Positions 5,283 to 21,140 of a stretch of DNA of 64,000 bases are shown piece after piece. Position 1 is the stretch's first letter; each line of letters opens with the position of its first letter. This stretch comes from an uncultured Pseudomonadota bacterium. Its GTDB lineage: Bacteria > Pseudomonadota > Alphaproteobacteria > Rs-D84. Below the pieces are notes generated by a model. That model did no database searches. It was not told the DNA's origin and was given only the letters and a program-made list of their open reading frames with translations. The DNA lies in contig CAMZIQ010000002.1 in NCBI GenBank assembly GCA_947307295.1, positions 80,621-144,620 on the forward strand, given 5' to 3'. The position numbers and the translations under genes are program-made.

Positions 5283-5359
5283 TGGTGGGTGGTATTGGGC
5301 TCGAACCAACGACCTCCACGATGTCAACGTGACGCTCTAGCCAACTGAGCTAACCACCC
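5283..5359 (-). tRNA. tRNA-Val (anticodon GAC), CCA encoded
   Basis: Reverse complement folds as a cloverleaf: GGGTGGT acceptor, D-arm TAGCTCAGTTGGCTAGAGC, anticodon stem TCACG/CGTGG with loop TTGACAT, T-arm GGTCGTTGGTTCGAGCC, then ACCACCC-A-CCA. The 5' half is supplied by the left att repeat of the integrated element. Confidence 0.9.
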
Positions 5360-5364
5360 AAAGC
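5317..5364. repeat. att core copy 1 (attL; equals the 5' half of tRNA-Val(GAC) plus 5 bp)
   Basis: Exact 48-bp direct repeat. Forms part of the intact tRNA. Confidence 0.85.
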
Positions 5365-5370
5365 CACTGA

Positions 5371-5398
5371 ATTATAACATCTAAATTCTAGAATGCAA
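5371..5398 (-). promoter_or_regulatory. element-borne sigma70-like promoter for tRNA-Val (TTGCAT-16-TATAAT on the minus strand)
   Basis: Minus strand reads ttgcat-N16-tataat, ending 11 nt before tRNA +1. A homologous native promoter (TTGCAA-16-TATAAT) sits beside the orphan att copy at 23535..23562. Confidence 0.45.
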
Positions 5399-5511
5399 AT
5401 AAAATCGCTTTTTTTTGCTTTGGTGGCTTTTAGATATAATTTGCTATAGCATCCCCTTTTCACCTACAGTATACTCTAGAGCATGCTCCAAATATGCTCC
5501 TAAATGGTGTT

Positions 5512-5721
5512 TTAGTAGTGTTTATTGGCAAATTTATCTATTCTAATTCGTTTTCCCCATGAATTTACAACAATAACATCTTCACCACTATGAAAAACAT
5601 CACGAGGTTTGTGGAATTCGAGTCTTCGACCACCAATTTGTTTGACTATTACATCATCGTCTTTCCAACGGTATCTCAAATTGCTTTTTGTTTGCATGTT
5701 TAAACCTCTTACTATGATCAT
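5512..5721 (-). CDS. hypothetical small protein (69 aa) at the element left end
   Basis: ORF conserved in both element copies. No motif recognised. Confidence 0.35.
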   Translation of the reverse strand: MIIVRGLNMQTKSNLRYRWKDDDVIVKQIGGRRLEFHKPRDVFHSGEDVIVVNSWGKRIRIDKFANKHY

Positions 5722-5823
5722 TAGAACTAAATTTGGTGCAGATTTTTACCATAAAAGGAATAAAAACACACATTTTAGAGTATAAATATTGTGTAAACAC
5801 TGTTTTCGTGTTATAATTGCTAC

Positions 5824-6975
5824 ATGTTTTATGATGTACAACCGATTCAGAATAAAGAAGACTATAAAAGAATGTTGACTCTTGTAGGTCAGCTTTCGAA
5901 TCTTTTTTCTGAGAGCGATTGTCCTTATTTATCTTACAGGGCTCATGAAAATATATTTTGTAGATTTTTGGGAGCAGAGAATTTAGCCAGATCTGATTGT
6001 TCTGCTGATGCCAAGAAAGATAAAGTTGGTGTTGGTTTGAAAACGTGGATGGGTAACAATGATCAGAAGGTTGCAGAATTTGGGCGTTTGAAGAATAGTT
6101 ATGCTAGTCTTTCTGGAATTGAATTAGTAAAGAAAATAGCTGAATACAGGAATGAACGCATCAGAATTACAAAGAGGTTACATGGATTAGATTCTATGAT
6201 ATACCATGTTGTAAAACGTGTTCCCGGAGCTATGCAAATTCTTGAGGGTGTGTTTGACGAGATAAATATAGAAAACATCACATTATTATCAAACACTGGG
6301 AACGATAACAACACATACTTTACTGATGGAAAACACAAATATCATTTTAGCACATCAAAAAACACTCTGTATATGATATTTGATTTTCTTGAACAGTTGG
6401 ATTCTTTTGAGGTAAAAATATTAGAAAATCCTTATGAATGGTTGTCGAAAGCTACAGATAAAAAAACTATTTCCAAAGACATCAAGAAAGTTGTCAAAGC
6501 TATACAAGAGGAATCAGCAAGAAAACCCCAATTATGTTTGAGATTATATTCGGTAAAGAAGGGTGAAAGGTTTGTTGCTGAGAAGAGTGGTTTAAATCAG
6601 TGGAACGCATCAGGAAGAGCAAGGAATCCTAATGAGTTATATATACCATACCCTAAGGAAGACAGAGACAGAATTCCTAATTTCTTTCCACCAAGAGACA
6701 CACCTTTTACACTACATTTGCCAGATGGTACAGCTATTTCTGCTAAAGTGTGCCAAGCAGACAACAAGGCTATAATGAGTAATCCTAACAGTTTATTGGG
6801 CAAATGGCTTTTGCGAGATGTGTTTGAATTGCCAGATAATACTTTAGTAACATATCAAATGTTAGAAAGGTTTGGTATAGATAGTGTGATTTTCACTAGA
6901 AATGCAGAATTAGATTATTCCGTAGAATTTTCAGAATTGGGCACTTATGAACGTTTTTATGAGATTGAAGACTAA
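5824..6975 (+). CDS. candidate Type II restriction endonuclease (383 aa) directly upstream of the C5-MTase
   Basis: Context only: co-oriented and 45 bp upstream of a Dcm-type MTase on a mobile element. No unambiguous PD-(D/E)xK motif. TATAAT (5812-5817) ends 6 nt before the ATG, suggesting a leaderless transcript. Confidence 0.45.
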   Translation: MFYDVQPIQNKEDYKRMLTLVGQLSNLFSESDCPYLSYRAHENIFCRFLGAENLARSDCSADAKKDKVGVGLKTWMGNNDQKVAEFGRLKNSYASLSGIELVKKIAEYRNERIRITKRLHGLDSMIYHVVKRVPGAMQILEGVFDEINIENITLLSNTGNDNNTYFTDGKHKYHFSTSKNTLYMIFDFLEQLDSFEVKILENPYEWLSKATDKKTISKDIKKVVKAIQEESARKPQLCLRLYSVKKGERFVAEKSGLNQWNASGRARNPNELYIPYPKEDRDRIPNFFPPRDTPFTLHLPDGTAISAKVCQADNKAIMSNPNSLLGKWLLRDVFELPDNTLVTYQMLERFGIDSVIFTRNAELDYSVEFSELGTYERFYEIED

Positions 6976-7017
6976 AAGAGTTTTTGGTTTTTTTATTTTA
7001 TTTTTTTTTGTTTTATT

Positions 7018-7035
7018 TTATTGCGGCGTGCCGCA
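7018..7035. promoter_or_regulatory. perfect palindrome ATTGCGGCGTGCCGCAAT between the R and M genes (attenuator or operator candidate)
   Basis: 8-bp arms ttgcggcg/cgccgcaa, preceded by a long T-rich tract and followed by tttat. A TAAAAT -10-like box and RBS aggag for the MTase lie downstream. Confidence 0.35.
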
Positions 7036-8067
7036 ATTTATGATAGAGTAAAATATGGTTACAGACACAGGAGTTTAAATATGTATACAATAGCATCGTT
7101 TTTTGCCGGTGTTGGTGGCATAGACTTAGGTTTTGAACAAACTAATAAATGCAAAACAATCTATGCTAATGAGTTTGATAGTTATGCAAGTGAGACGTTT
7201 GAAAAAAATTTTCCCGATGTCAAAGTTGATCAACGAGATATACATGATGTGCCTGAAAAAGATATACCAAATGTTGATATTTTTATAGGCGGTTTTCCAT
7301 GTCAGGCATTTTCTATAGCCGGCTACAGACGTGGCTTTGAGGACGAGAAAGGTAGAGGAAATTTGTTTTTTGAGCTTGTTCGTATGATGAAGGCAAAAAA
7401 ACCTCGTGTTGCGTTGTTTGAAAATGTAAAAAATTTAGTTAGCCACGACAAAGGGAATACGTTTCGTGTGATTTGTAATGAGTTGGAAAAATTGGGTTAT
7501 TATTATACATATCATGTTTTGAATGCCATGGATTATGGGAATATGGCTCAAAACAGGGAACGTATATATATAGTAGCATTCAAAAATAAGAAAGATTTTA
7601 TAAAATTCAAATGGGCGAAGACGGTACCTCTAACAACAACAGTAAAAGATATTATAGATTTTACTAAGAAGGTAGACGATAGATTTTATTATACAAAGGG
7701 AAAATACAAGGGTGATATATATGAAAGGCTTGTTGAAGCTACAAAAGGTGACGATCCTAAAAATCCGGCAATATACCAATGGCGTAGAAAATATGTTAGA
7801 AAAAACAAAAGTGGAGTGGTGCCAACTCTAACAGCTAATCAAGGTGAAGGTGGTCATAATGTTTGTATTGTAAAAACAAAATATGGTTTGAGAAAAATGA
7901 CCCCTCAAGAATGCTTTAATACCCAAGGCTTTCCAAAAACGTTTTTGTTACCAAAGCAAAGCGATGCACGTTTATATAAGCAGGCTGGCAATTCTGTTTG
8001 TGTACCGGTTATACACAATATAGCAGAAAACATAGTAACAGCTTTGTCTGACGGCGAAGATAGCTAG
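7021..8067 (+). CDS. DNA (cytosine-5)-methyltransferase, Dcm/HhaI-like; true start probably ATG at 7081 (MYTIASFF) after RBS aggag
   Basis: Motif I FAGVGG, motif IV GGFPCQAFS, motif VI ENVKNL, motif VIII QNRERIYIVAF, motif X GNSV. Short TRD (~328 aa total) as in M.HhaI and M.HaeIII. Confidence 0.9.
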   Translation: MRRAAIYDRVKYGYRHRSLNMYTIASFFAGVGGIDLGFEQTNKCKTIYANEFDSYASETFEKNFPDVKVDQRDIHDVPEKDIPNVDIFIGGFPCQAFSIAGYRRGFEDEKGRGNLFFELVRMMKAKKPRVALFENVKNLVSHDKGNTFRVICNELEKLGYYYTYHVLNAMDYGNMAQNRERIYIVAFKNKKDFIKFKWAKTVPLTTTVKDIIDFTKKVDDRFYYTKGKYKGDIYERLVEATKGDDPKNPAIYQWRRKYVRKNKSGVVPTLTANQGEGGHNVCIVKTKYGLRKMTPQECFNTQGFPKTFLLPKQSDARLYKQAGNSVCVPVIHNIAENIVTALSDGEDS

Positions 8068-8224
8068 AGCTCTTAGTGCGTAGCTGAGATTGTGTAATTA
8101 TTGCAGGCACAACAAAAACTTGAAAAATGTAAGTAACGTGGTATATTTAATGTGAGTACTCGTAAGTGTGCTTGTGACATTAGATAGCGGAACGGGTTTG
8201 ATCACCCAAGTACTAGTCTAGATA

Positions 8225-8346
8225 GTGTCCCAACCGAATGGTTGGGATGCCTTGTGCTATACAATAGGTCTTACCGACTAAAAGCCTTGGGGTTCTGTAC
8301 TTGAATTGATCAACATCCCAACCGCCTAATAAAGCGGTTGTTTTTT
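8225..8346 (+). repeat. divergent copy (C) of a CCAACC-N-GGTTGG leader-like repeat ending in hairpin aaccgc-ctaataaa-gcggtt plus T-run, immediately 5' of the Nuc-like gene
   Basis: Same architecture as repeats A (23624..23816) and B (40478..40660): an internal palindrome cccaaccgaatggttggg, about 85 nt, then ccaaccgcc-loop-gcgg plus Ts. Confidence 0.5.
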
Positions 8347-8871
8347 ATGTTGAAAGCTACTGGATGTTTTTTGTTTTTGATTCTTATATTTGAATTGGTT
8401 GCATGTAATCAAAATGCTATACAACCAATTCAAGAAAACCATAATGATATAAAGATATTTTTTACTCCCGGCACAGAATGTGAAAATAATATTATTGAAA
8501 GAATAAACCAATCAAAAAAAGTGGACATAGCTGTTTATTCAATTACAAACCCTGCTATTACAAAGGCTATTATTTCTGCATATAAACATGGGGTAAATGT
8601 AAGAATTGTGACAGATAAAACACAAGCATCAGGAAAAAAATCATTAGTCTCTCAAATACGTGCTGCCGGAATACCTGTTTTGACTAATAAAAAACACAAG
8701 ATAGAACATAATAAGTTTGCTGTTTTTGACGATGTACATGTTGTTTCTGGATCTTATAACTGGACAACAAACGCAACCAACTATAACAGTGAAAATTGCC
8801 TATTCTTTGATCAACCAGACATGGAATATTCTAAAAGATTTGAGTATCTATGGAAGGTTTATAGTGAATAG
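8338..8871 (+). CDS. Nuc-like phospholipase-D-family (HKD) endonuclease with lipoprotein signal peptide; start likely ATG at 8347
   Basis: HNKFAVFDD HxK(x4)D motif followed by SGSYNWT (PLD/Nuc family). N-terminus MLKATGCFLFLILIFELVAC has the lipobox LVAC. Size ~175 aa, as for pKM101 Nuc. Confidence 0.8.
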   Translation: MFFMLKATGCFLFLILIFELVACNQNAIQPIQENHNDIKIFFTPGTECENNIIERINQSKKVDIAVYSITNPAITKAIISAYKHGVNVRIVTDKTQASGKKSLVSQIRAAGIPVLTNKKHKIEHNKFAVFDDVHVVSGSYNWTTNATNYNSENCLFFDQPDMEYSKRFEYLWKVYSE

Positions 8872-8872
8872 C

Positions 8873-10558
8873 CTAGTAGTATATTTTAAATCCATCGTCT
8901 GTACCCAACTCTTCTATCACATTTTGTATTCTTTTTATTGTTATTTGATCTACTGTTTGAAATCCTGCTTTGCCTTCTATGGATTTTGGATCAACTTTTT
9001 CTGGTATCTGAGAGACGATAAAGTTGAAATTTGTACCTTCTTGTTTGTTTTTTAGCAAGCAGGCATGACTAACTACAGATGCTCCACCATACATCTCAAA
9101 TATCACCCCGGATCGTTGCCCAATAAGATCCAAAAGCATAGTTATAAGTTTTACCGGTTTTTTTGATCCACTAAATGATATATGACCTTCATTTTGTAGT
9201 GTTGATTTAGTGTCTGAAACATCCCATATATCACCTAAAATAACAGAATTTTTCAAGGATCCATCTTCTTGTTTTATAAGGCTATCGCTAAAACGCAAAT
9301 ATAAGGCGTTTTTAGAGCCTTTTTCTAGTAACTTGCCCTTGTACTCGAATATAGGGTCTAAATCGTCTCTATGGGCATAAAAAACGCTTTTATAAGCATT
9401 TGATTTGGGGTAAACAGCTTTGTATAGGTCTTTTGCTATAGTATTGTACATATAATGTTTGAATTCTGGCTCTATTTTGATCATTTTTTCTATGTTTTTA
9501 GATAATAGTTCCATGTTGTGCTTTTTGAATAAGTTTATTATATGAGGTTGCTGTTTCAGGTGGTCAATCAAATATATTTTTTCGTGCACTCCAAAAGTCG
9601 AATTTGGTTTTTTGATAAGATGCTTAAAGGAGTTTTGCCAGTAAGTACTAGATGGAGTGTATAAACGTTGCAGGTGATTTACTTTTGATTTGTCTTTTGC
9701 ATATACTAATAAATAGGATTTTAGTCCGGGTAATCTGTATTGAGTCCTAGATACAATAATAGATGCAGGGGTGCTTGTTTTTATGACGATGTTGTTTATA
9801 AAGTTTTCTCTACCGTATACAGAATCCATAAGCACTTTTACATACGCCATTTCGTGCTCACTTACAGATAGAGCAACAAGTCCGTCTGGTTGAAGAAGTT
9901 TTTTTACTAATTCAAGGCGAGGAAAAAGGTGCTCTAAAAGCTGGCACGTTCCGTCAAATGAAGAATTATATGCTAATACAGCTCTGTTTGATGGCATGTT
10001 AAAGGGTATGTCCCCGTATGCAAGTAACAGTTTTCCTGAGTATTCTGGTAAGAGCCATTTACAAGCATCTATATTATCTTTCACTAGAACAAGATTTTTA
10101 GATTTTTCATTATTTGGTAAGGAGTTGAAAGATTTGTTTGGGTGAAATTTGACTTTTGTTGGAGTGTTTGTTAGTTTTTCTGCCCTTTCTCTTCCATTAA
10201 AGTATAGAAATAGTCCGTTTTTGTTTTGTGTTTGTGTGGTGTTGTTTTTAAAGTCTTCTAGCGATCCAATTATTCCTTCGTATCTATACAGTTGCCCCCA
10301 TTTTTTACCATTTTCAACTTTGCTTATAATTCCGGTGTTGCAGAGAAGTTTGAGTGTGTTGGTGATGGTTGGTCTTGGGATTTTTGTTTGTTTGCATAAA
10401 GTTGTGATGTCGAGTTGAGGGGTTTTGCAAAAAGTATCAAATATGGCTAATGCTGTGTTTTTTGATCTACCAATGTTTTCTATTTTTGCTCGATCTGTAG
10501 ATATAATTTCTGTATTGAATGTATTTATTGTTTTTCTGATGGTTTGTTTTTTTATCAT
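8873..10558 (-). CDS. winged-HTH fused to a divergent N6/N4 amino-methyltransferase-like domain (PF01555-like fold with degenerate catalytic and SAM motifs)
   Basis: N-terminal wHTH-like segment AIFDTFCKTPQLDITTLCKQTKIPRPTITNTLKLLCNTGIISK. Motif IV position reads LLLAYGDIPFNMP (DIPF rather than DPPY). Typical post-motif segments: LQPDGLVALSVSEH..., NNIVIKT, YLLVYAKDKSK. C-terminal motif I position reads GVIFEMYGGASVV rather than VLDPFxGSGTT. Confidence 0.65.
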   Translation of the reverse strand: MIKKQTIRKTINTFNTEIISTDRAKIENIGRSKNTALAIFDTFCKTPQLDITTLCKQTKIPRPTITNTLKLLCNTGIISKVENGKKWGQLYRYEGIIGSLEDFKNNTTQTQNKNGLFLYFNGRERAEKLTNTPTKVKFHPNKSFNSLPNNEKSKNLVLVKDNIDACKWLLPEYSGKLLLAYGDIPFNMPSNRAVLAYNSSFDGTCQLLEHLFPRLELVKKLLQPDGLVALSVSEHEMAYVKVLMDSVYGRENFINNIVIKTSTPASIIVSRTQYRLPGLKSYLLVYAKDKSKVNHLQRLYTPSSTYWQNSFKHLIKKPNSTFGVHEKIYLIDHLKQQPHIINLFKKHNMELLSKNIEKMIKIEPEFKHYMYNTIAKDLYKAVYPKSNAYKSVFYAHRDDLDPIFEYKGKLLEKGSKNALYLRFSDSLIKQEDGSLKNSVILGDIWDVSDTKSTLQNEGHISFSGSKKPVKLITMLLDLIGQRSGVIFEMYGGASVVSHACLLKNKQEGTNFNFIVSQIPEKVDPKSIEGKAGFQTVDQITIKRIQNVIEELGTDDGFKIYY

Positions 10559-10577
10559 GGTACGCTCTCTCTTGAAT

Positions 10578-10604
10578 CATTATTTTTTATAGCAGAAAAT
10601 AATG
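10578..10604. promoter_or_regulatory. 9-bp-stem inverted repeat cattatttt-N9-aaaataatg 20 bp upstream of the MTase-like gene
   Basis: Perfect inverted repeat seen directly. Lies in the divergent intergenic region between the MTase-like gene (-) and the AlpA-like gene (+). Confidence 0.3.
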
Positions 10605-10692
10605 AATAATGCCAATCTAAAAAAAATAACAAAGTATACATTTTTATCATAATTTTGAGTTCTAATATACATACAAAAAAGGATCTATACTA

Positions 10693-10875
10693 ATGCTAAC
10701 AAAACCAGAATTCACACAAGAAAAACTATTGACGGTTACAGAGGCAGCTAATATTTTGAATTTAAAACCTTCTACCTTATACCGTATCAAACAAAATGAA
10801 AGGTCTCCCAAAAAGGTCAAAGTTTGTGGCAGGCTTTATTTTACTCTTTCTTCTATAAACAACATAATGGGCTAA
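10693..10875 (+). CDS. AlpA-like HTH DNA-binding protein (prophage regulatory / excisionase family)
   Basis: LLTVTEAANILNLKPSTLYR helix-turn-helix and the GRLYF / SINNI C-terminal pattern of the AlpA family. RBS aagga 8 nt upstream. Convergently overlaps the 3' end of the Rep gene by ~100 bp. Confidence 0.65.
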   Translation: MLTKPEFTQEKLLTVTEAANILNLKPSTLYRIKQNERSPKKVKVCGRLYFTLSSINNIMG

Positions 10876-11709
10876 TCTCTTTTCTAATATCTTTCTCAAT
10901 TTGTTTATGGGGTTTGGTAAGAGTAATTCGCCACGTTGTTTGAGCCATAAAGCAAAGATAATGACGGTTTTCAGTTGCTTTATATCAAAATAATTCACTT
11001 TATGTGGGTTGAATCTCTCTTTGCCAAACCAAGTCTTCATTGTAAACAGCTCACTACCTTCGTTGATATGTGGATCTTCGTTGTCTTTTAATTCTTTGAC
11101 AAGGTAAGCACAAATTCCCTCTTTATCATAAACACATCTCAAATCAAAAACGGTCTTATAAAACTTATATTTATCAACGATTTTACTAATTGCATCACAT
11201 AATCTGTAGCCAATATATTCGTCATGATCTGTACTTTTGAAGAGAATATGAACATGCCACCAAAAATCATTCTTACCATGTTCCATTACACCAACACATT
11301 GTAAAGCGTTTCTAGTCCAATGATTTTTTTGTTCTATGGCAAGAGTTTGAATTTCTTTGAATAATTTTTTATAAGATTTTTTAGCGTCTTCTCTGTTTCT
11401 TGTTCTTCTAAAACCGGATTGGGTGCATCTGGGTAGTTTGATTGTCAAAAGATAAGAATAGTCTTCTTGCATTAGTTGTTTTTGCCAATATTTCCTAGAG
11501 TCTTGATATTCAGTTTGGTGATTCCTATAAAAACCATTCAATTCTTCATTTATCTCATTTGTAAATTTAGACATGATTTCCTCTAGCGTTCTAAACCTTC
11601 TTCTTATTTTCAATCCACGTTCTTCCACATAAAACGTTCTTCTTTTTATTGTTTTACTTAGTTGGGAATGTTGAACATCTAAATTAGAAAATAAATCATA
11701 ACCATTCAT
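10777..11709 (-). CDS. HUH-superfamily rolling-circle Rep / MobT-like relaxase candidate (310 aa)
   Basis: WWHVHILF (HUH motif) followed by Tyr-containing segments (DEYIGYRL, ICAYLVKELK), as in Rep_trans/MobT proteins. Divergent from the regulator gene across a promoter/operator region. Confidence 0.55.
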   Translation of the reverse strand: MNGYDLFSNLDVQHSQLSKTIKRRTFYVEERGLKIRRRFRTLEEIMSKFTNEINEELNGFYRNHQTEYQDSRKYWQKQLMQEDYSYLLTIKLPRCTQSGFRRTRNREDAKKSYKKLFKEIQTLAIEQKNHWTRNALQCVGVMEHGKNDFWWHVHILFKSTDHDEYIGYRLCDAISKIVDKYKFYKTVFDLRCVYDKEGICAYLVKELKDNEDPHINEGSELFTMKTWFGKERFNPHKVNYFDIKQLKTVIIFALWLKQRGELLLPNPINKLRKILEKRLAHYVVYRRKSKIKPATNFDLFGRPFILFDTV

Positions 11710-11971
11710 TTATTACCTTCTTGGTTTACTTTGTTTAATGAATGATCAACACACCTTTTGTTTTGGGTGCTAATCAGTTTGAATCAAAAAGCCCGGATTT
11801 ATAAGGGTTGAAGCGTAATCCAATCCAACAGGAGCGATTTGATTTATTTCCTAGAACTGTTTTTTTTCATAAAGTTGTAAAATTTTTCATTCTTTGTGAT
11901 TTTTTTGAGGAACGATTCGTAAAAAAAGACAAATTCGATACAAAAATAGGTGTTTTTTCTGGCAGGAGGCA

Positions 11972-12029
11972 AGTGTATACACTTTGTGTATAAAAAATAC
12001 TTGACATCGGTACACAAAAAGTGTATACT
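11972..12029 (+). promoter_or_regulatory. switch region: consensus sigma70 promoter (TTGACA 12001-12006, 17 bp spacer, TATACT 12024-12029) with GTGTAYAC operator repeats, including the 12-bp palindrome AGTGTATACACT at 11972-11983
   Basis: Sequence read directly. Operator-like motifs at 11972-83, 11986-93, 12008-15 (inverted) and 12019-29 overlap the -35 and -10 boxes. RBS aaagaggtg then ATG of the HTH regulator. Confidence 0.6.
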
Positions 12030-12058
12030 GTAGCTGTAACAAAAACAAAAGAGGTGTT

Positions 12059-12601
12059 TTGATGGAAAAATATAGAACAAAGTTTGGTACATGGATCTCT
12101 GTATTTTGTGCCAGACATGGATTAAACATCGCAAGGGCTGCTTATGAATTGGGGTTGGCTCCTACTACATTGGCATCTATTGTAGCTGGAAGACATCCTT
12201 TACCGGTGTTCTTGCGTGAAAATATCATAGCGACTTTCGGAAGATATTTGTCCGGAACAGATATTGCCGAAATGGATCAAAGCATTGTTGATACAGAGGC
12301 AGGAGCTGTGATTGTGTCAAGGAACTATAAAAAATACGTCAGTGCACAAACAGTGAATGACAAAGAATGGTGTCTAAAACTGATGGATGTAATGGCTAAA
12401 GCGACCAATAAAATGAACAAGGAGGAATCTGAAGAAATTTATGCTCGTTTGCAAGAGATTGCTGAACGCCCTGCACCAGTATCTATAGAATTAGACAAAG
12501 ATATAGATATTGAAACGCTGAGACAAGATATTCGCAGACGGTATAAAGACCCTGTAAAAACAGAACAAATTGTAGAAAAAATAAAAGAACTGAGACAATA
12601 A
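12059..12601 (+). CDS. XRE/Cro-like HTH transcriptional regulator (element repressor candidate), acidic coiled-coil C-terminus
   Basis: N-terminal HTH WISVFCARHGLNIARAAYELGLAPTTLASIVAGRH. Immediately downstream of the operator-rich promoter. Confidence 0.6.
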   Translation: MMEKYRTKFGTWISVFCARHGLNIARAAYELGLAPTTLASIVAGRHPLPVFLRENIIATFGRYLSGTDIAEMDQSIVDTEAGAVIVSRNYKKYVSAQTVNDKEWCLKLMDVMAKATNKMNKEESEEIYARLQEIAERPAPVSIELDKDIDIETLRQDIRRRYKDPVKTEQIVEKIKELRQ

Positions 12602-12715
12602 AAAATAAAGTGGGTGAACAAGCTGCAACCTGCTCACCCTAACAAACACCAAACGAGTTGGATGTCTGCCACAAAGTCATTTTAGCTCGTTTGGATCAAA
12701 AATCAAGAACCAAAG

Positions 12716-14029
12716 GTGACTAAAATGAGCAAACAAGAAAATATTACACAAACATTAGTAAATAAAATCGTATACAACATCGAAAAAGGCAACACGTCTG
12801 AATTATGTGATGTGTGGGATTCTAAGACATCAGGTTTTGGTATACGAGTTGGCAAAACCAATGCATCTTTTATTTTCAAATATAGAAATAAGGCAAACAA
12901 AGCCCAAACAAAAACATTTGGTAAAATAACCGAAATGTCTGTTGCTGAGGCTAGAAATCTATTGGACGCATTTAAACCAACAATAAAATCTGATCTTGCA
13001 ACAATTCAGAAAACTAATAAGAAATATACGGTGAAAGATTTATGTGAAAAATATCTTGCGGAACACCAAACTCGTGCAACAACGAAAAAACAAGACGAAA
13101 GCAGGATTGAAAGACACGTCTTGCCAACACTTGGCAACATACCATTACATTTATTGACAGCTAAAGATATTATGAATGCACAAACGGCTATTGCAAACGG
13201 TGATAAAAAAATAATTATAGCAGGACATAAAAACCCAAATAATCCACATTCATATATCAAAGTATCTGGCGGTCAAGGTGCTGCTAAAAGGGTTATGGAA
13301 ATGCTGAAAACAATTTTGAATTTTGCAGAAGACGAAGAGTTGATTGAAAAAAATCCTATGAATTCTCGTAAATTCAAAAAAATCAAATACGATAAAAAAG
13401 AAACAGCGTATCTCGAAAACAACAATTATGAAAATCTTGGTTATTTGTTGAAAAAGCATGAACAGCAATCAAAGAAAAGCAATCAAAGTGTGTTGTTTAT
13501 AAAATTATTGGCTTTGACGGGCTGTCGTAAAGGTGAATTATTAGGTCTTACTTGGAATCGAGTAGATTTTACCAACCAATATTTTGTGTTTGCTAAAACA
13601 AAAACTACAGGGGAACAAAAACGATATTTTGGATCTGCAGCAAAAAGATTATTGTTAGATATGCACCAAAAAGCTACATCCAACTACTTGTTCCCTAGTA
13701 TTACAAAAACAGGTACACATAGAAAAGATTGTTTGAGAGCTTTAAAGCAGATTTGTAAAACAGCACAAGAAAACAAAAGTCAATTTGATGCAATACAAAA
13801 ACTAACCCTACATGGTCTTAGACATTCATTTTCAACAATGTGTAACACCCTCTCTTTTCCCGATGTAATTAGAGAAGGACTTATGGGGCACAAGAATGGT
13901 GGTGTACAATATATTTATACACACAATACACATAACACAATGATTGAACATGCAGATAAAGTATCAGAAAGTATCAACACGTTGTTAGATACGGGATGTA
14001 AAAAAGCAGAATTGGAAAACAACAACTAA
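12716..14029 (+). CDS. int: tyrosine recombinase / phage integrase (P4-like, DUF4102 N-terminus); start possibly ATG 12725
   Basis: Box I LTGCRKGELLGLTWNRVD (Arg), box II HGLRHSF (H-x-x-R), and catalytic Tyr in HKNGGVQYIYTH. Adjacent to the tRNA att site. Confidence 0.92.
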   Translation: MTKMSKQENITQTLVNKIVYNIEKGNTSELCDVWDSKTSGFGIRVGKTNASFIFKYRNKANKAQTKTFGKITEMSVAEARNLLDAFKPTIKSDLATIQKTNKKYTVKDLCEKYLAEHQTRATTKKQDESRIERHVLPTLGNIPLHLLTAKDIMNAQTAIANGDKKIIIAGHKNPNNPHSYIKVSGGQGAAKRVMEMLKTILNFAEDEELIEKNPMNSRKFKKIKYDKKETAYLENNNYENLGYLLKKHEQQSKKSNQSVLFIKLLALTGCRKGELLGLTWNRVDFTNQYFVFAKTKTTGEQKRYFGSAAKRLLLDMHQKATSNYLFPSITKTGTHRKDCLRALKQICKTAQENKSQFDAIQKLTLHGLRHSFSTMCNTLSFPDVIREGLMGHKNGGVQYIYTHNTHNTMIEHADKVSESINTLLDTGCKKAELENNN

Positions 14030-14041
14030 AGAGGTAAAAAA

Positions 14042-14263
14042 ATGAAATTTATAACAGAAAGAGAATTAGCTAAATTTTTATCGAATGAATATGGTTTGCC
14101 AACATCGAAAAAATCATTAGAAAAATTACGTGCAAAAGGTAAAGCACCAAATTTTAGAGTTTGGGGTGGAAAAATTGTATATGAAAAGCAAGATGTACAG
14201 ACATGGCTCAACAATCAAATGGCGATTTGTTACAAGTACACAATGCCAAAATATAGCATATAA
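14042..14263 (+). CDS. excisionase-like HTH protein (HTH_17/AlpA-Xis family)
   Basis: ITERELAKFL ... NFRVWGGKIVYEKQDVQTWL pattern. Immediately follows the integrase, with RBS gaggtaaaaaaATG. Confidence 0.55.
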   Translation: MKFITERELAKFLSNEYGLPTSKKSLEKLRAKGKAPNFRVWGGKIVYEKQDVQTWLNNQMAICYKYTMPKYSI

Positions 14264-14273
14264 AAAAAGCAAA

Positions 14274-14291
14274 ATGCTCCCAATATGCTCC
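14274..14291 (+). promoter_or_regulatory. pair of ATGCTCC direct repeats 11 bp apart at the element right end (putative integrase/Xis arm-type sites); equivalent pair at the left end, 5483-5500
   Basis: atgctcc at 14274-80 and 14285-91. atgctcc at 5483-89 and 5494-5500. Same orientation and spacing (one helical turn) at both arms. Confidence 0.35.
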
Positions 14292-14340
14292 AAAATGATA
14301 AAAACCACAAAACTAACACAAACACTAGAGAATCAAAAAA

Positions 14341-14367
14341 CCCCGGAAATCCGGGGTAAATCTTTTT
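14341..14367 (+). terminator. Rho-independent terminator after xis (ccccgg-aaat-ccgggg then T-run)
   Basis: Hairpin and tctttttgtt read directly. Last feature before att. Confidence 0.5.
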
Positions 14368-14398
14368 GTTGGGGGGCTAAAATCTTCATAACGAATTT

Positions 14399-14446
14399 CA
14401 CGATGTCAACGTGACGCTCTAGCCAACTGAGCTAACCACCCAAAGC
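14399..14446. repeat. att core copy 2 (junction between the two element units; partial tRNA-Val 5' half)
   Basis: Exact 48-bp direct repeat. Preceded by the element right end and followed by the element left end. Confidence 0.85.
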
Positions 14447-14593
14447 CACTGAATTATAACATCTAAATTCTAGAATGCAAATAAAATCGCTTTTTTTTGC
14501 TTTGGTGGCTTTTAGATATAATTTGCTATAGCATCCCCTTTTCACCTACAGTATACTCTAGAGCATGCTCCAAATATGCTCCTAAATGGTGTT

Positions 14594-14803
14594 TTAGTAG
14601 TGTTTATTGGCAAATTTATCTATTCTAATTCGTTTTCCCCATGAATTTACAACAATAACATCTTCACCACTATGAAAAACATCACGAGGTTTGTGGAATT
14701 CGAGTCTTCGACCACCAATTTGTTTGACTATTACATCATCGTCTTTCCAACGGTATCTCAAATTGCTTTTTGTTTGCATGTTTAAACCTCTTACTATGAT
14801 CAT
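14594..14803 (-). CDS. hypothetical small protein (copy 2 of 5512..5721)
   Basis: Identical translation at offset +9082. Confidence 0.35.
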   Translation of the reverse strand: MIIVRGLNMQTKSNLRYRWKDDDVIVKQIGGRRLEFHKPRDVFHSGEDVIVVNSWGKRIRIDKFANKHY

Positions 14804-14905
14804 TAGAACTAAATTTGGTGCAGATTTTTACCATAAAAGGAATAAAAACACACATTTTAGAGTATAAATATTGTGTAAACACTGTTTTCGTGTTATAATT
14901 GCTAC

Positions 14906-16057
14906 ATGTTTTATGATGTACAACCGATTCAGAATAAAGAAGACTATAAAAGAATGTTGACTCTTGTAGGTCAGCTTTCGAATCTTTTTTCTGAGAGCGA
15001 TTGTCCTTATTTATCTTACAGGGCTCATGAAAATATATTTTGTAGATTTTTGGGAGCAGAGAATTTAGCCAGATCTGATTGTTCTGCTGATGCCAAGAAA
15101 GATAAAGTTGGTGTTGGTTTGAAAACGTGGATGGGTAACAATGATCAGAAGGTTGCAGAATTTGGGCGTTTGAAGAATAGTTATGCTAGTCTTTCTGGAA
15201 TTGAATTAGTAAAGAAAATAGCTGAATACAGGAATGAACGCATCAGAATTACAAAGAGGTTACATGGATTAGATTCTATGATATACCATGTTGTAAAACG
15301 TGTTCCCGGAGCTATGCAAATTCTTGAGGGTGTGTTTGACGAGATAAATATAGAAAACATCACATTATTATCAAACACTGGGAACGATAACAACACATAC
15401 TTTACTGATGGAAAACACAAATATCATTTTAGCACATCAAAAAACACTCTGTATATGATATTTGATTTTCTTGAACAGTTGGATTCTTTTGAGGTAAAAA
15501 TATTAGAAAATCCTTATGAATGGTTGTCGAAAGCTACAGATAAAAAAACTATTTCCAAAGACATCAAGAAAGTTGTCAAAGCTATACAAGAGGAATCAGC
15601 AAGAAAACCCCAATTATGTTTGAGATTATATTCGGTAAAGAAGGGTGAAAGGTTTGTTGCTGAGAAGAGTGGTTTAAATCAGTGGAACGCATCAGGAAGA
15701 GCAAGGAATCCTAATGAGTTATATATACCATACCCTAAGGAAGACAGAGACAGAATTCCTAATTTCTTTCCACCAAGAGACACACCTTTTACACTACATT
15801 TGCCAGATGGTACAGCTATTTCTGCTAAAGTGTGCCAAGCAGACAACAAGGCTATAATGAGTAATCCTAACAGTTTATTGGGCAAATGGCTTTTGCGAGA
15901 TGTGTTTGAATTGCCAGATAATACTTTAGTAACATATCAAATGTTAGAAAGGTTTGGTATAGATAGTGTGATTTTCACTAGAAATGCAGAATTAGATTAT
16001 TCCGTAGAATTTTCAGAATTGGGCACTTATGAACGTTTTTATGAGATTGAAGACTAA
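14906..16057 (+). CDS. candidate Type II restriction endonuclease (copy 2)
   Basis: Identical translation at offset +9082. Confidence 0.45.
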   Translation: MFYDVQPIQNKEDYKRMLTLVGQLSNLFSESDCPYLSYRAHENIFCRFLGAENLARSDCSADAKKDKVGVGLKTWMGNNDQKVAEFGRLKNSYASLSGIELVKKIAEYRNERIRITKRLHGLDSMIYHVVKRVPGAMQILEGVFDEINIENITLLSNTGNDNNTYFTDGKHKYHFSTSKNTLYMIFDFLEQLDSFEVKILENPYEWLSKATDKKTISKDIKKVVKAIQEESARKPQLCLRLYSVKKGERFVAEKSGLNQWNASGRARNPNELYIPYPKEDRDRIPNFFPPRDTPFTLHLPDGTAISAKVCQADNKAIMSNPNSLLGKWLLRDVFELPDNTLVTYQMLERFGIDSVIFTRNAELDYSVEFSELGTYERFYEIED

Positions 16058-16102
16058 AAGAGTTTTTGGTTTTTTTATTTTATTTTTTTTTGTTTTATTT
16101 TA

Positions 16103-17149
16103 TTGCGGCGTGCCGCAATTTATGATAGAGTAAAATATGGTTACAGACACAGGAGTTTAAATATGTATACAATAGCATCGTTTTTTGCCGGTGTTGGTGG
16201 CATAGACTTAGGTTTTGAACAAACTAATAAATGCAAAACAATCTATGCTAATGAGTTTGATAGTTATGCAAGTGAGACGTTTGAAAAAAATTTTCCCGAT
16301 GTCAAAGTTGATCAACGAGATATACATGATGTGCCTGAAAAAGATATACCAAATGTTGATATTTTTATAGGCGGTTTTCCATGTCAGGCATTTTCTATAG
16401 CCGGCTACAGACGTGGCTTTGAGGACGAGAAAGGTAGAGGAAATTTGTTTTTTGAGCTTGTTCGTATGATGAAGGCAAAAAAACCTCGTGTTGCGTTGTT
16501 TGAAAATGTAAAAAATTTAGTTAGCCACGACAAAGGGAATACGTTTCGTGTGATTTGTAATGAGTTGGAAAAATTGGGTTATTATTATACATATCATGTT
16601 TTGAATGCCATGGATTATGGGAATATGGCTCAAAACAGGGAACGTATATATATAGTAGCATTCAAAAATAAGAAAGATTTTATAAAATTCAAATGGGCGA
16701 AGACGGTACCTCTAACAACAACAGTAAAAGATATTATAGATTTTACTAAGAAGGTAGACGATAGATTTTATTATACAAAGGGAAAATACAAGGGTGATAT
16801 ATATGAAAGGCTTGTTGAAGCTACAAAAGGTGACGATCCTAAAAATCCGGCAATATACCAATGGCGTAGAAAATATGTTAGAAAAAACAAAAGTGGAGTG
16901 GTGCCAACTCTAACAGCTAATCAAGGTGAAGGTGGTCATAATGTTTGTATTGTAAAAACAAAATATGGTTTGAGAAAAATGACCCCTCAAGAATGCTTTA
17001 ATACCCAAGGCTTTCCAAAAACGTTTTTGTTACCAAAGCAAAGCGATGCACGTTTATATAAGCAGGCTGGCAATTCTGTTTGTGTACCGGTTATACACAA
17101 TATAGCAGAAAACATAGTAACAGCTTTGTCTGACGGCGAAGATAGCTAG
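16103..17149 (+). CDS. DNA (cytosine-5)-methyltransferase (copy 2; start probably 16163)
   Basis: Identical translation at offset +9082, with the same m5C motifs. Confidence 0.9.
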   Translation: MRRAAIYDRVKYGYRHRSLNMYTIASFFAGVGGIDLGFEQTNKCKTIYANEFDSYASETFEKNFPDVKVDQRDIHDVPEKDIPNVDIFIGGFPCQAFSIAGYRRGFEDEKGRGNLFFELVRMMKAKKPRVALFENVKNLVSHDKGNTFRVICNELEKLGYYYTYHVLNAMDYGNMAQNRERIYIVAFKNKKDFIKFKWAKTVPLTTTVKDIIDFTKKVDDRFYYTKGKYKGDIYERLVEATKGDDPKNPAIYQWRRKYVRKNKSGVVPTLTANQGEGGHNVCIVKTKYGLRKMTPQECFNTQGFPKTFLLPKQSDARLYKQAGNSVCVPVIHNIAENIVTALSDGEDS

Positions 17150-17306
17150 AGCTCTTAGTGCGTAGCTGAGATTGTGTAATTATTGCAGGCACAACAAAAA
17201 CTTGAAAAATGTAAGTAACGTGGTATATTTAATGTGAGTACTCGTAAGTGTGCTTGTGACATTAGATAGCGGAACGGGTTTGATCACCCAAGTACTAGTC
17301 TAGATA

Positions 17307-17428
17307 GTGTCCCAACCGAATGGTTGGGATGCCTTGTGCTATACAATAGGTCTTACCGACTAAAAGCCTTGGGGTTCTGTACTTGAATTGATCAACATCC
17401 CAACCGCCTAATAAAGCGGTTGTTTTTT
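17307..17428 (+). repeat. leader-like repeat C (copy 2) ending in a terminator hairpin at the Nuc-like start
   Basis: Identical to 8225..8346 at +9082. Confidence 0.5.
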
Positions 17429-17953
17429 ATGTTGAAAGCTACTGGATGTTTTTTGTTTTTGATTCTTATATTTGAATTGGTTGCATGTAATCAAAATGCT
17501 ATACAACCAATTCAAGAAAACCATAATGATATAAAGATATTTTTTACTCCCGGCACAGAATGTGAAAATAATATTATTGAAAGAATAAACCAATCAAAAA
17601 AAGTGGACATAGCTGTTTATTCAATTACAAACCCTGCTATTACAAAGGCTATTATTTCTGCATATAAACATGGGGTAAATGTAAGAATTGTGACAGATAA
17701 AACACAAGCATCAGGAAAAAAATCATTAGTCTCTCAAATACGTGCTGCCGGAATACCTGTTTTGACTAATAAAAAACACAAGATAGAACATAATAAGTTT
17801 GCTGTTTTTGACGATGTACATGTTGTTTCTGGATCTTATAACTGGACAACAAACGCAACCAACTATAACAGTGAAAATTGCCTATTCTTTGATCAACCAG
17901 ACATGGAATATTCTAAAAGATTTGAGTATCTATGGAAGGTTTATAGTGAATAG
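17420..17953 (+). CDS. Nuc-like PLD-family endonuclease lipoprotein (copy 2)
   Basis: Identical translation at offset +9082. Confidence 0.8.
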   Translation: MFFMLKATGCFLFLILIFELVACNQNAIQPIQENHNDIKIFFTPGTECENNIIERINQSKKVDIAVYSITNPAITKAIISAYKHGVNVRIVTDKTQASGKKSLVSQIRAAGIPVLTNKKHKIEHNKFAVFDDVHVVSGSYNWTTNATNYNSENCLFFDQPDMEYSKRFEYLWKVYSE

Positions 17954-17954
17954 C

Positions 17955-19640
17955 CTAGTAGTATATTTTAAATCCATCGTCTGTACCCAACTCTTCTATC
18001 ACATTTTGTATTCTTTTTATTGTTATTTGATCTACTGTTTGAAATCCTGCTTTGCCTTCTATGGATTTTGGATCAACTTTTTCTGGTATCTGAGAGACGA
18101 TAAAGTTGAAATTTGTACCTTCTTGTTTGTTTTTTAGCAAGCAGGCATGACTAACTACAGATGCTCCACCATACATCTCAAATATCACCCCGGATCGTTG
18201 CCCAATAAGATCCAAAAGCATAGTTATAAGTTTTACCGGTTTTTTTGATCCACTAAATGATATATGACCTTCATTTTGTAGTGTTGATTTAGTGTCTGAA
18301 ACATCCCATATATCACCTAAAATAACAGAATTTTTCAAGGATCCATCTTCTTGTTTTATAAGGCTATCGCTAAAACGCAAATATAAGGCGTTTTTAGAGC
18401 CTTTTTCTAGTAACTTGCCCTTGTACTCGAATATAGGGTCTAAATCGTCTCTATGGGCATAAAAAACGCTTTTATAAGCATTTGATTTGGGGTAAACAGC
18501 TTTGTATAGGTCTTTTGCTATAGTATTGTACATATAATGTTTGAATTCTGGCTCTATTTTGATCATTTTTTCTATGTTTTTAGATAATAGTTCCATGTTG
18601 TGCTTTTTGAATAAGTTTATTATATGAGGTTGCTGTTTCAGGTGGTCAATCAAATATATTTTTTCGTGCACTCCAAAAGTCGAATTTGGTTTTTTGATAA
18701 GATGCTTAAAGGAGTTTTGCCAGTAAGTACTAGATGGAGTGTATAAACGTTGCAGGTGATTTACTTTTGATTTGTCTTTTGCATATACTAATAAATAGGA
18801 TTTTAGTCCGGGTAATCTGTATTGAGTCCTAGATACAATAATAGATGCAGGGGTGCTTGTTTTTATGACGATGTTGTTTATAAAGTTTTCTCTACCGTAT
18901 ACAGAATCCATAAGCACTTTTACATACGCCATTTCGTGCTCACTTACAGATAGAGCAACAAGTCCGTCTGGTTGAAGAAGTTTTTTTACTAATTCAAGGC
19001 GAGGAAAAAGGTGCTCTAAAAGCTGGCACGTTCCGTCAAATGAAGAATTATATGCTAATACAGCTCTGTTTGATGGCATGTTAAAGGGTATGTCCCCGTA
19101 TGCAAGTAACAGTTTTCCTGAGTATTCTGGTAAGAGCCATTTACAAGCATCTATATTATCTTTCACTAGAACAAGATTTTTAGATTTTTCATTATTTGGT
19201 AAGGAGTTGAAAGATTTGTTTGGGTGAAATTTGACTTTTGTTGGAGTGTTTGTTAGTTTTTCTGCCCTTTCTCTTCCATTAAAGTATAGAAATAGTCCGT
19301 TTTTGTTTTGTGTTTGTGTGGTGTTGTTTTTAAAGTCTTCTAGCGATCCAATTATTCCTTCGTATCTATACAGTTGCCCCCATTTTTTACCATTTTCAAC
19401 TTTGCTTATAATTCCGGTGTTGCAGAGAAGTTTGAGTGTGTTGGTGATGGTTGGTCTTGGGATTTTTGTTTGTTTGCATAAAGTTGTGATGTCGAGTTGA
19501 GGGGTTTTGCAAAAAGTATCAAATATGGCTAATGCTGTGTTTTTTGATCTACCAATGTTTTCTATTTTTGCTCGATCTGTAGATATAATTTCTGTATTGA
19601 ATGTATTTATTGTTTTTCTGATGGTTTGTTTTTTTATCAT
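17955..19640 (-). CDS. wHTH plus degenerate amino-MTase-like protein (copy 2)
   Basis: Identical translation at offset +9082. Confidence 0.65.
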   Translation of the reverse strand: MIKKQTIRKTINTFNTEIISTDRAKIENIGRSKNTALAIFDTFCKTPQLDITTLCKQTKIPRPTITNTLKLLCNTGIISKVENGKKWGQLYRYEGIIGSLEDFKNNTTQTQNKNGLFLYFNGRERAEKLTNTPTKVKFHPNKSFNSLPNNEKSKNLVLVKDNIDACKWLLPEYSGKLLLAYGDIPFNMPSNRAVLAYNSSFDGTCQLLEHLFPRLELVKKLLQPDGLVALSVSEHEMAYVKVLMDSVYGRENFINNIVIKTSTPASIIVSRTQYRLPGLKSYLLVYAKDKSKVNHLQRLYTPSSTYWQNSFKHLIKKPNSTFGVHEKIYLIDHLKQQPHIINLFKKHNMELLSKNIEKMIKIEPEFKHYMYNTIAKDLYKAVYPKSNAYKSVFYAHRDDLDPIFEYKGKLLEKGSKNALYLRFSDSLIKQEDGSLKNSVILGDIWDVSDTKSTLQNEGHISFSGSKKPVKLITMLLDLIGQRSGVIFEMYGGASVVSHACLLKNKQEGTNFNFIVSQIPEKVDPKSIEGKAGFQTVDQITIKRIQNVIEELGTDDGFKIYY

Positions 19641-19774
19641 GGTACGCTCTCTCTTGAATCATTATTTTTTATAGCAGAAAATAATGAATAATGCCAATCT
19701 AAAAAAAATAACAAAGTATACATTTTTATCATAATTTTGAGTTCTAATATACATACAAAAAAGGATCTATACTA

Positions 19775-19957
19775 ATGCTAACAAAACCAGAATTCACACA
19801 AGAAAAACTATTGACGGTTACAGAGGCAGCTAATATTTTGAATTTAAAACCTTCTACCTTATACCGTATCAAACAAAATGAAAGGTCTCCCAAAAAGGTC
19901 AAAGTTTGTGGCAGGCTTTATTTTACTCTTTCTTCTATAAACAACATAATGGGCTAA
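19775..19957 (+). CDS. AlpA-like HTH protein (copy 2)
   Basis: Identical translation at offset +9082. Confidence 0.65.
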   Translation: MLTKPEFTQEKLLTVTEAANILNLKPSTLYRIKQNERSPKKVKVCGRLYFTLSSINNIMG

Positions 19958-20791: not shown

Positions 20792-21053
20792 TTATTACCT
20801 TCTTGGTTTACTTTGTTTAATGAATGATCAACACACCTTTTGTTTTGGGTGCTAATCAGTTTGAATCAAAAAGCCCGGATTTATAAGGGTTGAAGCGTAA
20901 TCCAATCCAACAGGAGCGATTTGATTTATTTCCTAGAACTGTTTTTTTTCATAAAGTTGTAAAATTTTTCATTCTTTGTGATTTTTTTGAGGAACGATTC
21001 GTAAAAAAAGACAAATTCGATACAAAAATAGGTGTTTTTTCTGGCAGGAGGCA

Positions 21054-21111: not shown

Positions 21112-21140
21112 GTAGCTGTAACAAAAACAAAAGAGGTGTT

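Follow-up and report, generated by a model that had tools for sequence, protein, structure and literature searches.

The 64,000-nt stretch of contig CAMZIQ010000002.1 analysed here (the window), which comes from an uncultured alphaproteobacterium, very probably carries a 9,082-bp integrative island that has inserted into the anticodon loop of a tRNA-Val(GAC) gene and that regenerates this gene with an island-borne 5' part and promoter. The target would be the single chromosomal tRNA-Val(GAC) gene beside metG, where the island would now reside in two identical head-to-tail copies. Elements mobilized by tyrosine integrases normally carry the 3' part of their target tRNA (PMC10865867, PMC4383910); the island in the window carries the opposite half, and thus brings a promoter instead of a 3' end and terminator. 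Below, we describe the anatomy of the locus, its counterparts in related genomes (loci and contigs of relatives retrieved for comparison are given L-numbers) and the degree to which the evidence separates this reading from its rivals.

Two tRNAs are detected in the window by ARAGORN, one of which is a tRNA-Val(GAC) at 5283..5359 on the minus strand that folds as a cloverleaf and scores 63.9 bits against the Rfam tRNA model. The first 43 nt of this tRNA have three exact matches in the window, at 5317, 14399 and 23481 (0 expected by chance), and a three-way alignment of the junctions defines an identity block of 48 bp at 5317..5364, 14399..14446 and 23481..23528. Read on the minus strand, this core consists of 5 leader bases followed by tRNA nucleotides 1-43, which are canonical positions 1-42 with one extra base in the D loop, and it ends one base before the end of the anticodon stem. 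The cores are spaced 9,082 bp apart, and the two island units can be aligned without a single mismatch over 9,082 positions. Along the window, the order is left flank, core (5317..5364, attL), island (unique part 5365..14398; the unit is 9,082 bp counting one core), core (14399..14446, an attP-like junction between the island copies), a second, identical island (14447..23480), core (23481..23528, attR) and right flank.

A complete tRNA is found at the left junction only, as had been stated in a preliminary description of this locus. Fragments containing tRNA nucleotides 1-43 lie at 14441..14399 and 23523..23481 on the minus strand, in the same orientation as the intact gene and upstream of it. 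That description regarded the intact tRNA as a chimera of a chromosomal 3' half and an element-borne 5' half, and the comparisons with related loci given below (an empty site in L008, sequence variants in L001) agree with it: nucleotides 44-77 (5316..5283) are chromosomal, and nucleotides 1-43 (5359..5317) lie within the core and are supplied by the island after integration. The repeated block is indeed the 5' half of the folded tRNA, as it comprises nucleotides 1-43 of a gene whose product folds as a cloverleaf. What the same description called copy 3 is the right end of the tandem pair. This core consists of 5 leader bases and the orphan 5' part of the native tRNA (minus strand, 23523..23481), which was said to keep its own upstream promoter; the alignment of this junction with L008 bears this out.

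An exact-sequence look-up with the window MreB led to L008, a conspecific metagenome contig with an empty site, while exact-sequence look-ups with the window integrase and with the window MetRS gave no match. L008 is 96-98% identical in nucleotide sequence to the window flanks, lacks the island, and has metG, tRNA-Val(GAC), an outer membrane protein gene and mreB contiguous with one another. Its attB equals the left flank of the window attL, the core and the right flank of the window attR, base for base across the junctions, such that the insertion is missing from a related genome exactly at the fragment boundaries; the tRNA at this empty site is identical to the intact tRNA of the window. The match of L008 to the window flanks shows that the intact tRNA has a chromosomal 3' part and downstream flank, and that 23562..23535 holds the native promoter. 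An uninterrupted tRNA-Val locus of the kind that the preliminary description proposed to seek in related genomes is therefore present.

The same island also occupies the same tRNA gene in a different host. A scan of a genome collection with the window integrase returned one true relative, L001, and one irrelevant 24% match (L002). L001 is a contig of a metagenome-assembled genome of an Alphaproteobacteria bacterium from yak omasum, and encodes an integrase 100% identical to that of the window. Its island is 98% identical to the window island at the nucleotide level over 6.3 kb, with part of the cargo replaced, though the accC genes of the two hosts are only ~75% identical. The native 5' half of the L001 host differs from that of the island at two positions and in D-loop length: it has T28 in place of the island C28, and a D loop that is one base longer, with a T where the window island copy has a C. 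At attL of L001, the tRNA joins the island C28 to the host A42, while the orphan at attR joins the host T28 to the island G42. These reciprocal variants at 28 and 42 place the crossover between tRNA positions 29 and 41, and a position-41 variant in L004 (integrase 70% identical) narrows this to 29-40, a 12-nt interval that contains the 7-nt anticodon loop (32-38). The block of identity extends, in every group of related islands, to position 40-42, in the 3' strand of the anticodon stem. Judging from these variants and block ends, the site is an anticodon-centred (class A, symmetric) site in the 2002 classification of Williams. The chimeric tRNA-Val of L001 (L001:1435-1510, minus strand) contains a C28.A42 mismatch in its anticodon stem, flagged by cmscan, scores 64.2 bits compared to 71.4 for a native-type tRNA, and has a D loop one base shorter than that of the host's own tRNA. 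The mismatch and the shorter D loop may represent a fitness cost of integrating into a non-identical target.

Integrases 56-93% identical to that of the window form a tight family in gut and rumen Alphaproteobacteria, and loci were retrieved for eight of them. These fall into group A (the window, L001, L003, L004 and L005), group B (L006/L007, L009, L012 and L015-L017) and group C (L013/L014). In all three groups (including L004, L006, L009, L012, L013 and L015) the orphan 5' part adjoins xis and int, with a native promoter before it, and the far end of the island, wherever it falls within the retrieved sequence, is where the intact tRNA is found. The exception is L010/L011 (P0008), where an intact tRNA-Pro(CGG) is situated 124 nt beyond xis (L010:11692-11768, L011:8553-8629); the 3' end of this tRNA points towards the island, and its promoter lies towards fabF of the host. 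The integrase of this sister element is 58-67% identical and is placed inside the family in a neighbour-joining tree without support values. Its layout would be conventional, or at least not of the 5' type, with the 3' half presumably supplied by the island; no tRNA-Pro fragment was found in the retrieved loci, which cover the island junction beside xis. The anticodon stems of this tRNA-Pro and of the tRNA-Val of group B hosts share TACG/CGTA, which fits a recognition of the stem arms as core sites. A metagenome scan with the family alignment gave only 22-29% identical integrases among the matches listed, the peptide patterns being generic. Both ends of the Logan short-read contigs L003, L005 and L007 fall inside the core, and those of L003 and L005 overlap by 16 nt; we rejected the reading of these contigs as excised circles, since a unitig bounded by a ~48-bp repeat gives the same overlap.

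Upstream of the intact tRNA, the island carries a sigma-70-type promoter, TTGCAT-16-(TGt)TATAAT (5371..5398, minus strand), that ends 11 nt before tRNA +1 and is conserved in L001, L003, L004 and L005. Its second copy (14453..14480, minus strand) is predicted to drive only the truncated pseudo-tRNA present there. The native tRNA-Val(GAC) promoter, TTGCAA-16-(TGt)TATAAT (23535..23562, minus strand), lies 11 nt before +1 of the orphan and is identical in L008. The element-borne hexamers, 11 nt before +1, and the native hexamers in the same register were read correctly in the preliminary description; they lie at 5398..5371 and 23562..23535, and to these a TG extension can be added in both cases. 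The pattern TTGCAW-N16-TATAAT has 4 matches in 64 kb, compared to 0.2 expected. Native tRNA-Val(GAC) promoters from at least seven host backgrounds are all TTGCAA-16-(TGt)TATAAT, with a leader of 11 nt in six of these backgrounds and 13 nt in the seventh (L015/L017), while the islands of groups A and C have TTGCA(T/A)-16-TGtTATAAT-11. The hexamers, TG extension, spacer length and distance to +1 are constant in the window, L001, L003, L004, L005, L013 and L014, whose islands differ elsewhere.

The similarity of the two sides extends past the core. There, the island side agrees with the native side in register at 27 of 40 positions (shuffle mean 13.7, p<5e-5), many of which belong to the hexamers and the TGn. 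The imperfect homology past the core that had been noted earlier is thus present, though over ~40 bp (BLAST carries it to ~5404) instead of the ~50 bp originally proposed. More informative are the relatives: the group C island promoter (L013) is identical at 34 of 35 positions to the native promoter of the window, TTTTTATTTGCAAATCCAAAAT[A/T]AGTTGTTATAAT, and the same island promoter and its upstream sequence align with the window island promoter and its upstream sequence over ~78 nt. Spacer identity between island and native promoters is 6-11 of 16 positions, the same range as that between native promoters of different hosts, compared to 1-6 of 16 with unrelated group B upstream regions. Because of the L013 match and this range of spacer identity, we consider the island promoters homologous to the chromosomal ones; on these alignments, the island promoter is a true homologue of the chromosomal tRNA-Val(GAC) promoters of this rumen/gut Alphaproteobacteria group, in keeping with the homology claimed at the outset. 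Its origin could lie in an ancient capture, or in continuing conversion that spreads from the shared core. The intact tRNA is predicted to be driven by the island promoter at 5398..5371.

The attP spans ~14270-14590, where ATGCTCCNAA arm-repeat pairs flank a core that looks like a tRNA-Val. On the minus strand, it begins with the sigma-70 promoter and the 11-nt leader, continues with tRNA nucleotides 1-43, which supply the acceptor 5' strand, the D arm and almost all of the anticodon arm, and closes with a decayed 3' part followed by a terminator hairpin. The attP-type pseudo-tRNA at the tandem junction (14370..14441, minus strand) lacks a T arm; its 5' half is intact, as are its D and anticodon arms, and its acceptor-like stem has 6/7 pairs (GGGUGGU/GCCCCCC). 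The Rfam tRNA model aligns to it end-to-end with 27.7 bits, compared to a gathering score of 29, and the bare 5' half in L009 already scores ~23 bits. Local alignment of the attP 3' side to the tRNA 3' half gives p=0.02 in L003 and 0.06 in L004, both of which are marginal, and 0.95 in L009. It is plausible that attP began as a complete tRNA gene, a view for which the promoter side argues well and the 3' side weakly.

The hairpin that closes this arrangement is a predicted bidirectional intrinsic terminator, G+C-rich and with T-runs on both strands, that lies at 14340..14357 between xis and the core. The same sequence recurs at 23422..23439, where it follows the orphan 5' part on the minus strand at a distance of 42-100 nt, and both a sequence scan and folding place a strong hairpin ~40 nt beyond the core on the minus strand. 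For int-xis transcripts, on the plus strand, this hairpin would be the end point; transcripts on the minus strand, begun at the native promoter of attR or at the island promoter of the middle junction, would be stopped by it before reading antisense into xis and int. The terminator is conserved in group A, including L004.

The recombination functions encoded by the island are in line with this anatomy. Each unit contains a tyrosine integrase gene (copy 1, 12716..14029, plus strand, 437 amino acids; copy 2, 21798-23111) whose product combines Arm-DNA-bind_3 at its N-terminus with a Phage_integrase catalytic domain. Both copies match PF00589, PF13356 and PF14659 as well as phrog_1 (integrase), with PF13356 at 31.5 bits compared to a cut-off of 27, and the catalytic residues R271, K296, H366, R369, H392 and Y401 are invariant in a 21-member alignment of the family. 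The protein is probably a lambda/P4-style tyrosine recombinase with an arm-binding domain, and is predicted to be catalytically active; its arm-binding domain and att context argue against an Xer or integron type. The P4-integrase subfamily reportedly uses an asymmetric 3'-end sublocation (as described by Williams in 2002), and because the site used here is the anticodon loop and not the 3' end, with only PF13356 shared, we do not file the integrase under that subfamily. Adjacent to int is a gene for a 73-amino-acid HTH_17 protein (14042..14263, plus strand; copy 2, 23124-23345) that matches phrog_66 (excisionase and transcriptional regulator) and is likely an excisionase or recombination directionality factor. 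The core is flanked on either side by paired 11-nt repeats (ATGCTCCHAA), at 14274-14297 and 14565-14588; the other copies have counterparts of these, such as 23356-23379 in the second island. All 8 matches in the window, compared to 0.49 expected, fall at att arms, and the pairs lie ~105-125 nt and ~160-185 nt from the anticodon loop on opposite arms. The P' arm pair, ATGCTCCAAAT/ATGCTCCTAAAT (5483..5506, plus strand), and the P arm pair found in the repeat scan, ATGCTCCCAAT/ATGCTCCAAAAT (14274..14297, plus strand), are predicted sites for the N-terminal arm-binding domain of the integrase, and would be the expected arm-type sites of a lambda-like attP of ~320 bp.

These observations lend themselves to a mechanism in which strand exchange would take place in or beside the 7-nt anticodon loop, with the arms of the anticodon stem acting as inverted core-type sites. 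With the island on the 5' side of the crossover, the chromosomal 3' part (nucleotides 44-77 and the native downstream flank) would become joined to the island 5' part and promoter. The full tRNA would thereby be regenerated at attL, where it would have to be transcribed from the island promoter, and the native promoter and native 5' part would be displaced by 18 kb to attR. There, the native promoter would make only a truncated RNA that, in group A, would meet the terminator before reading antisense into xis and int. The island promoter itself may have been captured from a chromosomal tRNA-Val(GAC) locus, or may have been kept similar by exchange with such a locus. A bolder reading, which we put forward tentatively and which may well be wrong, is that these integrases use an attP which arose by capture of a complete tRNA unit (promoter, tRNA and terminator), that selection after capture, and not flipping of the site, picks which half is intact, and that promoters are still exchanged between island and chromosome, for example by gene conversion from the 48-bp core. 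With respect to int/xis and the arm sites, the tRNA-like segment is oriented alike in the tRNA-Val islands and in the tRNA-Pro island of L010/L011; on this reading, the former would have retained the 5' half and promoter while their 3' half decayed to a pseudo-tRNA, and promoter exchange by gene conversion would explain the 34/35 identity of one island promoter to a host promoter.

Several observations weigh against this account or parts of it. When the -35, -10 and TGn motifs are set aside, the window pair of promoters retains a marginal 14 of 30 identical positions (p=0.04), and the pair alone is therefore only suggestive of homology. Use of the island promoter is a prediction from its sequence. 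In group B islands, the 90 nt next to the tRNA hold no promoter like it, so a homologous promoter at -11 is not obligatory. The nearest good promoter in group B, TTTACA-16-TATTAT, is 172 nt upstream, beyond the arm repeats, in an upstream region that is conserved. The terminator is confined to group A islands and absent from groups B and C; we accordingly rejected it as a family-wide insulator and treat it as a group-specific refinement. On the 3' side of the attP, alignment to the tRNA 3' half gives p=0.51 for the window island, and the acceptor-like pairing adds only ~4-5 bits over the bare 5' half. The preliminary proposal that attP derives from a homologous tRNA-Val locus thus fares well on the promoter side and poorly on the 3' side. 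Lastly, the zero differences between the island copies could in principle be an assembly artefact, which would leave the att anatomy unaffected.

With regard to the promoters, the likeness of island and native sequences could reflect convergence of strong sigma-70 tRNA promoters (TTGnnn-16-TGnTATAAT with a common leader) instead of ancestry or capture. The marginal match at non-motif positions of the window pair would be expected in that case, and group B islands evidently work without a TTGCA(T/A)-16-TATAAT promoter. A leader end common to tRNA-Val(GAC) and an unrelated gene points in the same direction: the tRNA-Val(TAC) gene at 43458-43534 (minus strand), preceded by a promoter-like site, TGGACA-16-TATTAT, in the upstream sequence to 43580, has the leader end 'cgcttt', and the shared 'gcttt' before 43534 suggests a general leader feature of this genome, perhaps a shared leader or processing motif, which gives no evidence of homology. 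We nonetheless regard convergence as improbable, since the L013/L014 island promoter matches the window native promoter at 34 of 35 positions, its 16-nt spacer being identical bar one base, and aligns together with its upstream sequence with the window island for ~78 nt. In addition, a non-consensus -35 (TTGCA), a 16-nt spacer and an 11-nt leader are common to all, and spacer identity to the native promoters is ~50%, twice that of unrelated upstream regions. It could also be that the hexamers at 5398..5371 are vestigial, and that the tRNA is instead matured by RNase P from minus-strand read-through (e.g. of a 69-amino-acid open reading frame (ORF) at 5512-5721) or from a distant promoter. That ORF is conserved and lies 153 nt upstream on the minus strand, the group B promoter 172 nt upstream implies a long leader in those islands, and a general promoter scan finds about as many sites in the window as in shuffled sequence. 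The specific pattern, on the other hand, occurs 4 times in 64 kb where 0.2 are expected, its features are conserved across the window, L001, L003, L004, L005, L013 and L014, and the island architecture matches that of native promoters (hexamers and 16-nt spacer in all, 11-nt leader in all but one), which makes this possibility quite improbable and favours transcription from the island promoter.

As to the layout of the locus, the identity of the copies would stem from a tandem integration that is very recent (or from the entry of a dimer), or else from assembly. In the latter case, by mis-collapse or expansion of a repeat or by a mixture of integrated and circular forms, the real chromosome would contain one copy. 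The absence of any difference over 9,082 bp is what such an artefact would produce, and the short-read contigs L003, L005 and L007, which break inside the core, indicate that assemblers struggle there. A recent second integration would also yield identical copies, however, the middle junction is exactly the join expected of an attP, and tandem arrays are common among islands in tRNA genes (tDNAs), with 125 in the Islander database (PMC4383910), so we consider a single-copy chromosome unlikely. Finally, repeats arising from segmental duplication of the chromosome, or a tRNA that is wholly island-borne, would dispense with site-specific insertion altogether. This explanation draws on the bare existence of direct repeats and on nothing more; it has virtually no chance of being correct, as segmental duplication is ruled out by the exact boundaries of the conspecific empty site in L008, the same island is found at the same tRNA in a different host with reciprocal variants, and an integrase, an excisionase-like gene and arm repeats are present. 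Site-specific insertion into the tRNA gene thus remains the preferred reading of the repeats.

The reverse of the usual tRNA-targeting arrangement, an element carrying the 5' part of its target tRNA, is said to have been described by Zhao and Williams in 2002, reportedly in Mesorhizobium loti. The window island resembles that element in having a tyrosine integrase and an attP with the 5' portion of a tRNA, and in that the element must provide upstream sequences; it is distinguished as a 9-kb restriction-modification (R-M) island of rumen/gut Alphaproteobacteria, in tandem and with a promoter homologous to native ones. In the Islander collection, 3,760 of 3,919 tDNA islands have a 3' fragment and 159 a 5' fragment, 2,083 of the 3,919 have anticodon-centred sites and 125 are tandem arrays (PMC4383910). 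Carriage of the 5' half is therefore the less common arrangement, as the preliminary description had it (159 vs 3,760 islands, ~4%; PMC4383910), and it is already documented and not a new kind of system. The window locus contains the elements by which Islander defines such islands, namely an intact tRNA, an upstream 5' fragment in the same orientation and a tyrosine integrase per unit. It is like the 5'-fragment islands of Hudson, Lau and Williams (2015; PMC4383910) in that the integrase lies between the intact tDNA and the upstream fragment, and like the Islander tandem arrays in having one fragment and one integrase per unit, the anticodon-centred class being shared as well (PMC4383910). In contrast to the promoter comparison made here for the window island, the word 'promoter' has 0 occurrences in the Islander paper (PMC4383910), and the window locus comes from an uncultured lineage that is probably outside Islander's 2012 genome set (PMC4383910).

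Much of the machinery is nevertheless shared with conventional 3'-half elements, including an arm-binding integrase, paired arm-type sites flanking the core, a core of ~45 bp, a crossover in the anticodon stem-loop and a functional tRNA rebuilt at one junction. The displaced fragment of the window island, unlike that of conventional elements, keeps the native promoter, which is predicted to be active. The tRNA-dependent lysogeny of the Fionnbharth type (PMC10865867) is likewise a non-standard way for an element to integrate where the target tRNA gene is essential. However, in Fionnbharth and related phages the tRNA is not rebuilt, the core is 10 bp and a separate complete tRNA gene is carried (PMC10865867), whereas in the window island the tRNA is rebuilt at attL and the tRNA-like segment of attP is incomplete, having no T arm. 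The 5'-distal elements of another domain of life have the same rare configuration with a different promoter type; the passage that describes them contains no promoter comparison.

A specialist would recognise this arrangement at once, and the value of the family lies in its being a good natural system for the study of promoter replacement and 3' bias. The locus illustrates what an element entering a tRNA gene from the 'wrong' side needs, namely a working promoter in the right register; group A islands also carry a predicted terminator against the antisense reading of the displaced native promoter into xis and int. To what is already documented, it adds unusually full comparative evidence in the form of an empty site, inter-host transfer with reciprocal variants, promoter homology, relatives without a homologous promoter and a tRNA-Pro sister of presumably conventional layout. 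The empty site, the occurrence of one island in two hosts (one of which is left with a mismatched anticodon stem), relatives with and without a homologous promoter, and the tRNA-Pro sister offer matched material for examining promoter replacement, the fitness cost of a chimeric tRNA and the 3'-half bias. Were the captured-tRNA-unit reading true, the reasons for the ~24:1 preference for 3' halves could be sought in this family as a natural system. In gut and rumen Alphaproteobacteria, R-M-carrying islands of this kind would go unnoticed in annotation pipelines that search for displaced 3' fragments only.

The cargo of each unit comprises a type II restriction endonuclease (5824-6975 in island copy 1) and a C5 methyltransferase (7021-8067), a PLD-family nuclease (8338-8871), a type III-like methyltransferase (8873-10558, minus strand), two small HTH_17 proteins (one of them encoded at 10693-10875) and three proteins without a family match. 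The latter are the 310-amino-acid (10777-11709, minus strand), 180-amino-acid (12059-12601) and 69-amino-acid (5512-5721, minus strand) proteins, none of which has a match in PHROGs, PADLOC or Pfam. Cargo varies among related islands: in place of the type II R-M genes, PLD nuclease and type III-like methyltransferase of the window (5824-10558), the group B and C islands (L006, L012, L013 and L015) encode type I R-M (HsdR/S/M) and AAA_14/DUF4143 ATPases. The backbone conserved across islands consists of the int-xis-180-amino-acid protein module and the att region, and the family looks like a shuttle for defence genes.

Two further features were noted at the target sites of relatives. In L006 (L006:11473-11548), a 35-nt insertion separates the native promoter from the orphan 5' part. 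Its first 9 nt are a relic of the tRNA 5' end (GGGTGGTTA), its last bases are of the island leader type (aaagtttt), and it resembles a scar left at this site by an earlier island that has since been deleted. The group C islands of L013 and L014 have the same integrase and different D-loop variants of the tRNA 5' half (GGTTAG at L013:31 vs GGCTAG at L014:23), which hints that the island-borne 5' half is homogenised with the resident host gene.

A hairpin-rich intergenic repeat of ~180 nt occurs twice in the window, at 23625-23801 and 40491-40658, with 82% identity between the copies and no match to an Rfam family. Each copy is followed, after ~70 nt, by a TTGCAA-16-TATAAT promoter, and the two copies are oriented alike relative to their promoters, one being the native tRNA-Val promoter and the other a site at 40736-40763 before a 722-amino-acid ORF. 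The repeat is also present at the empty site (L008:11830-12024).

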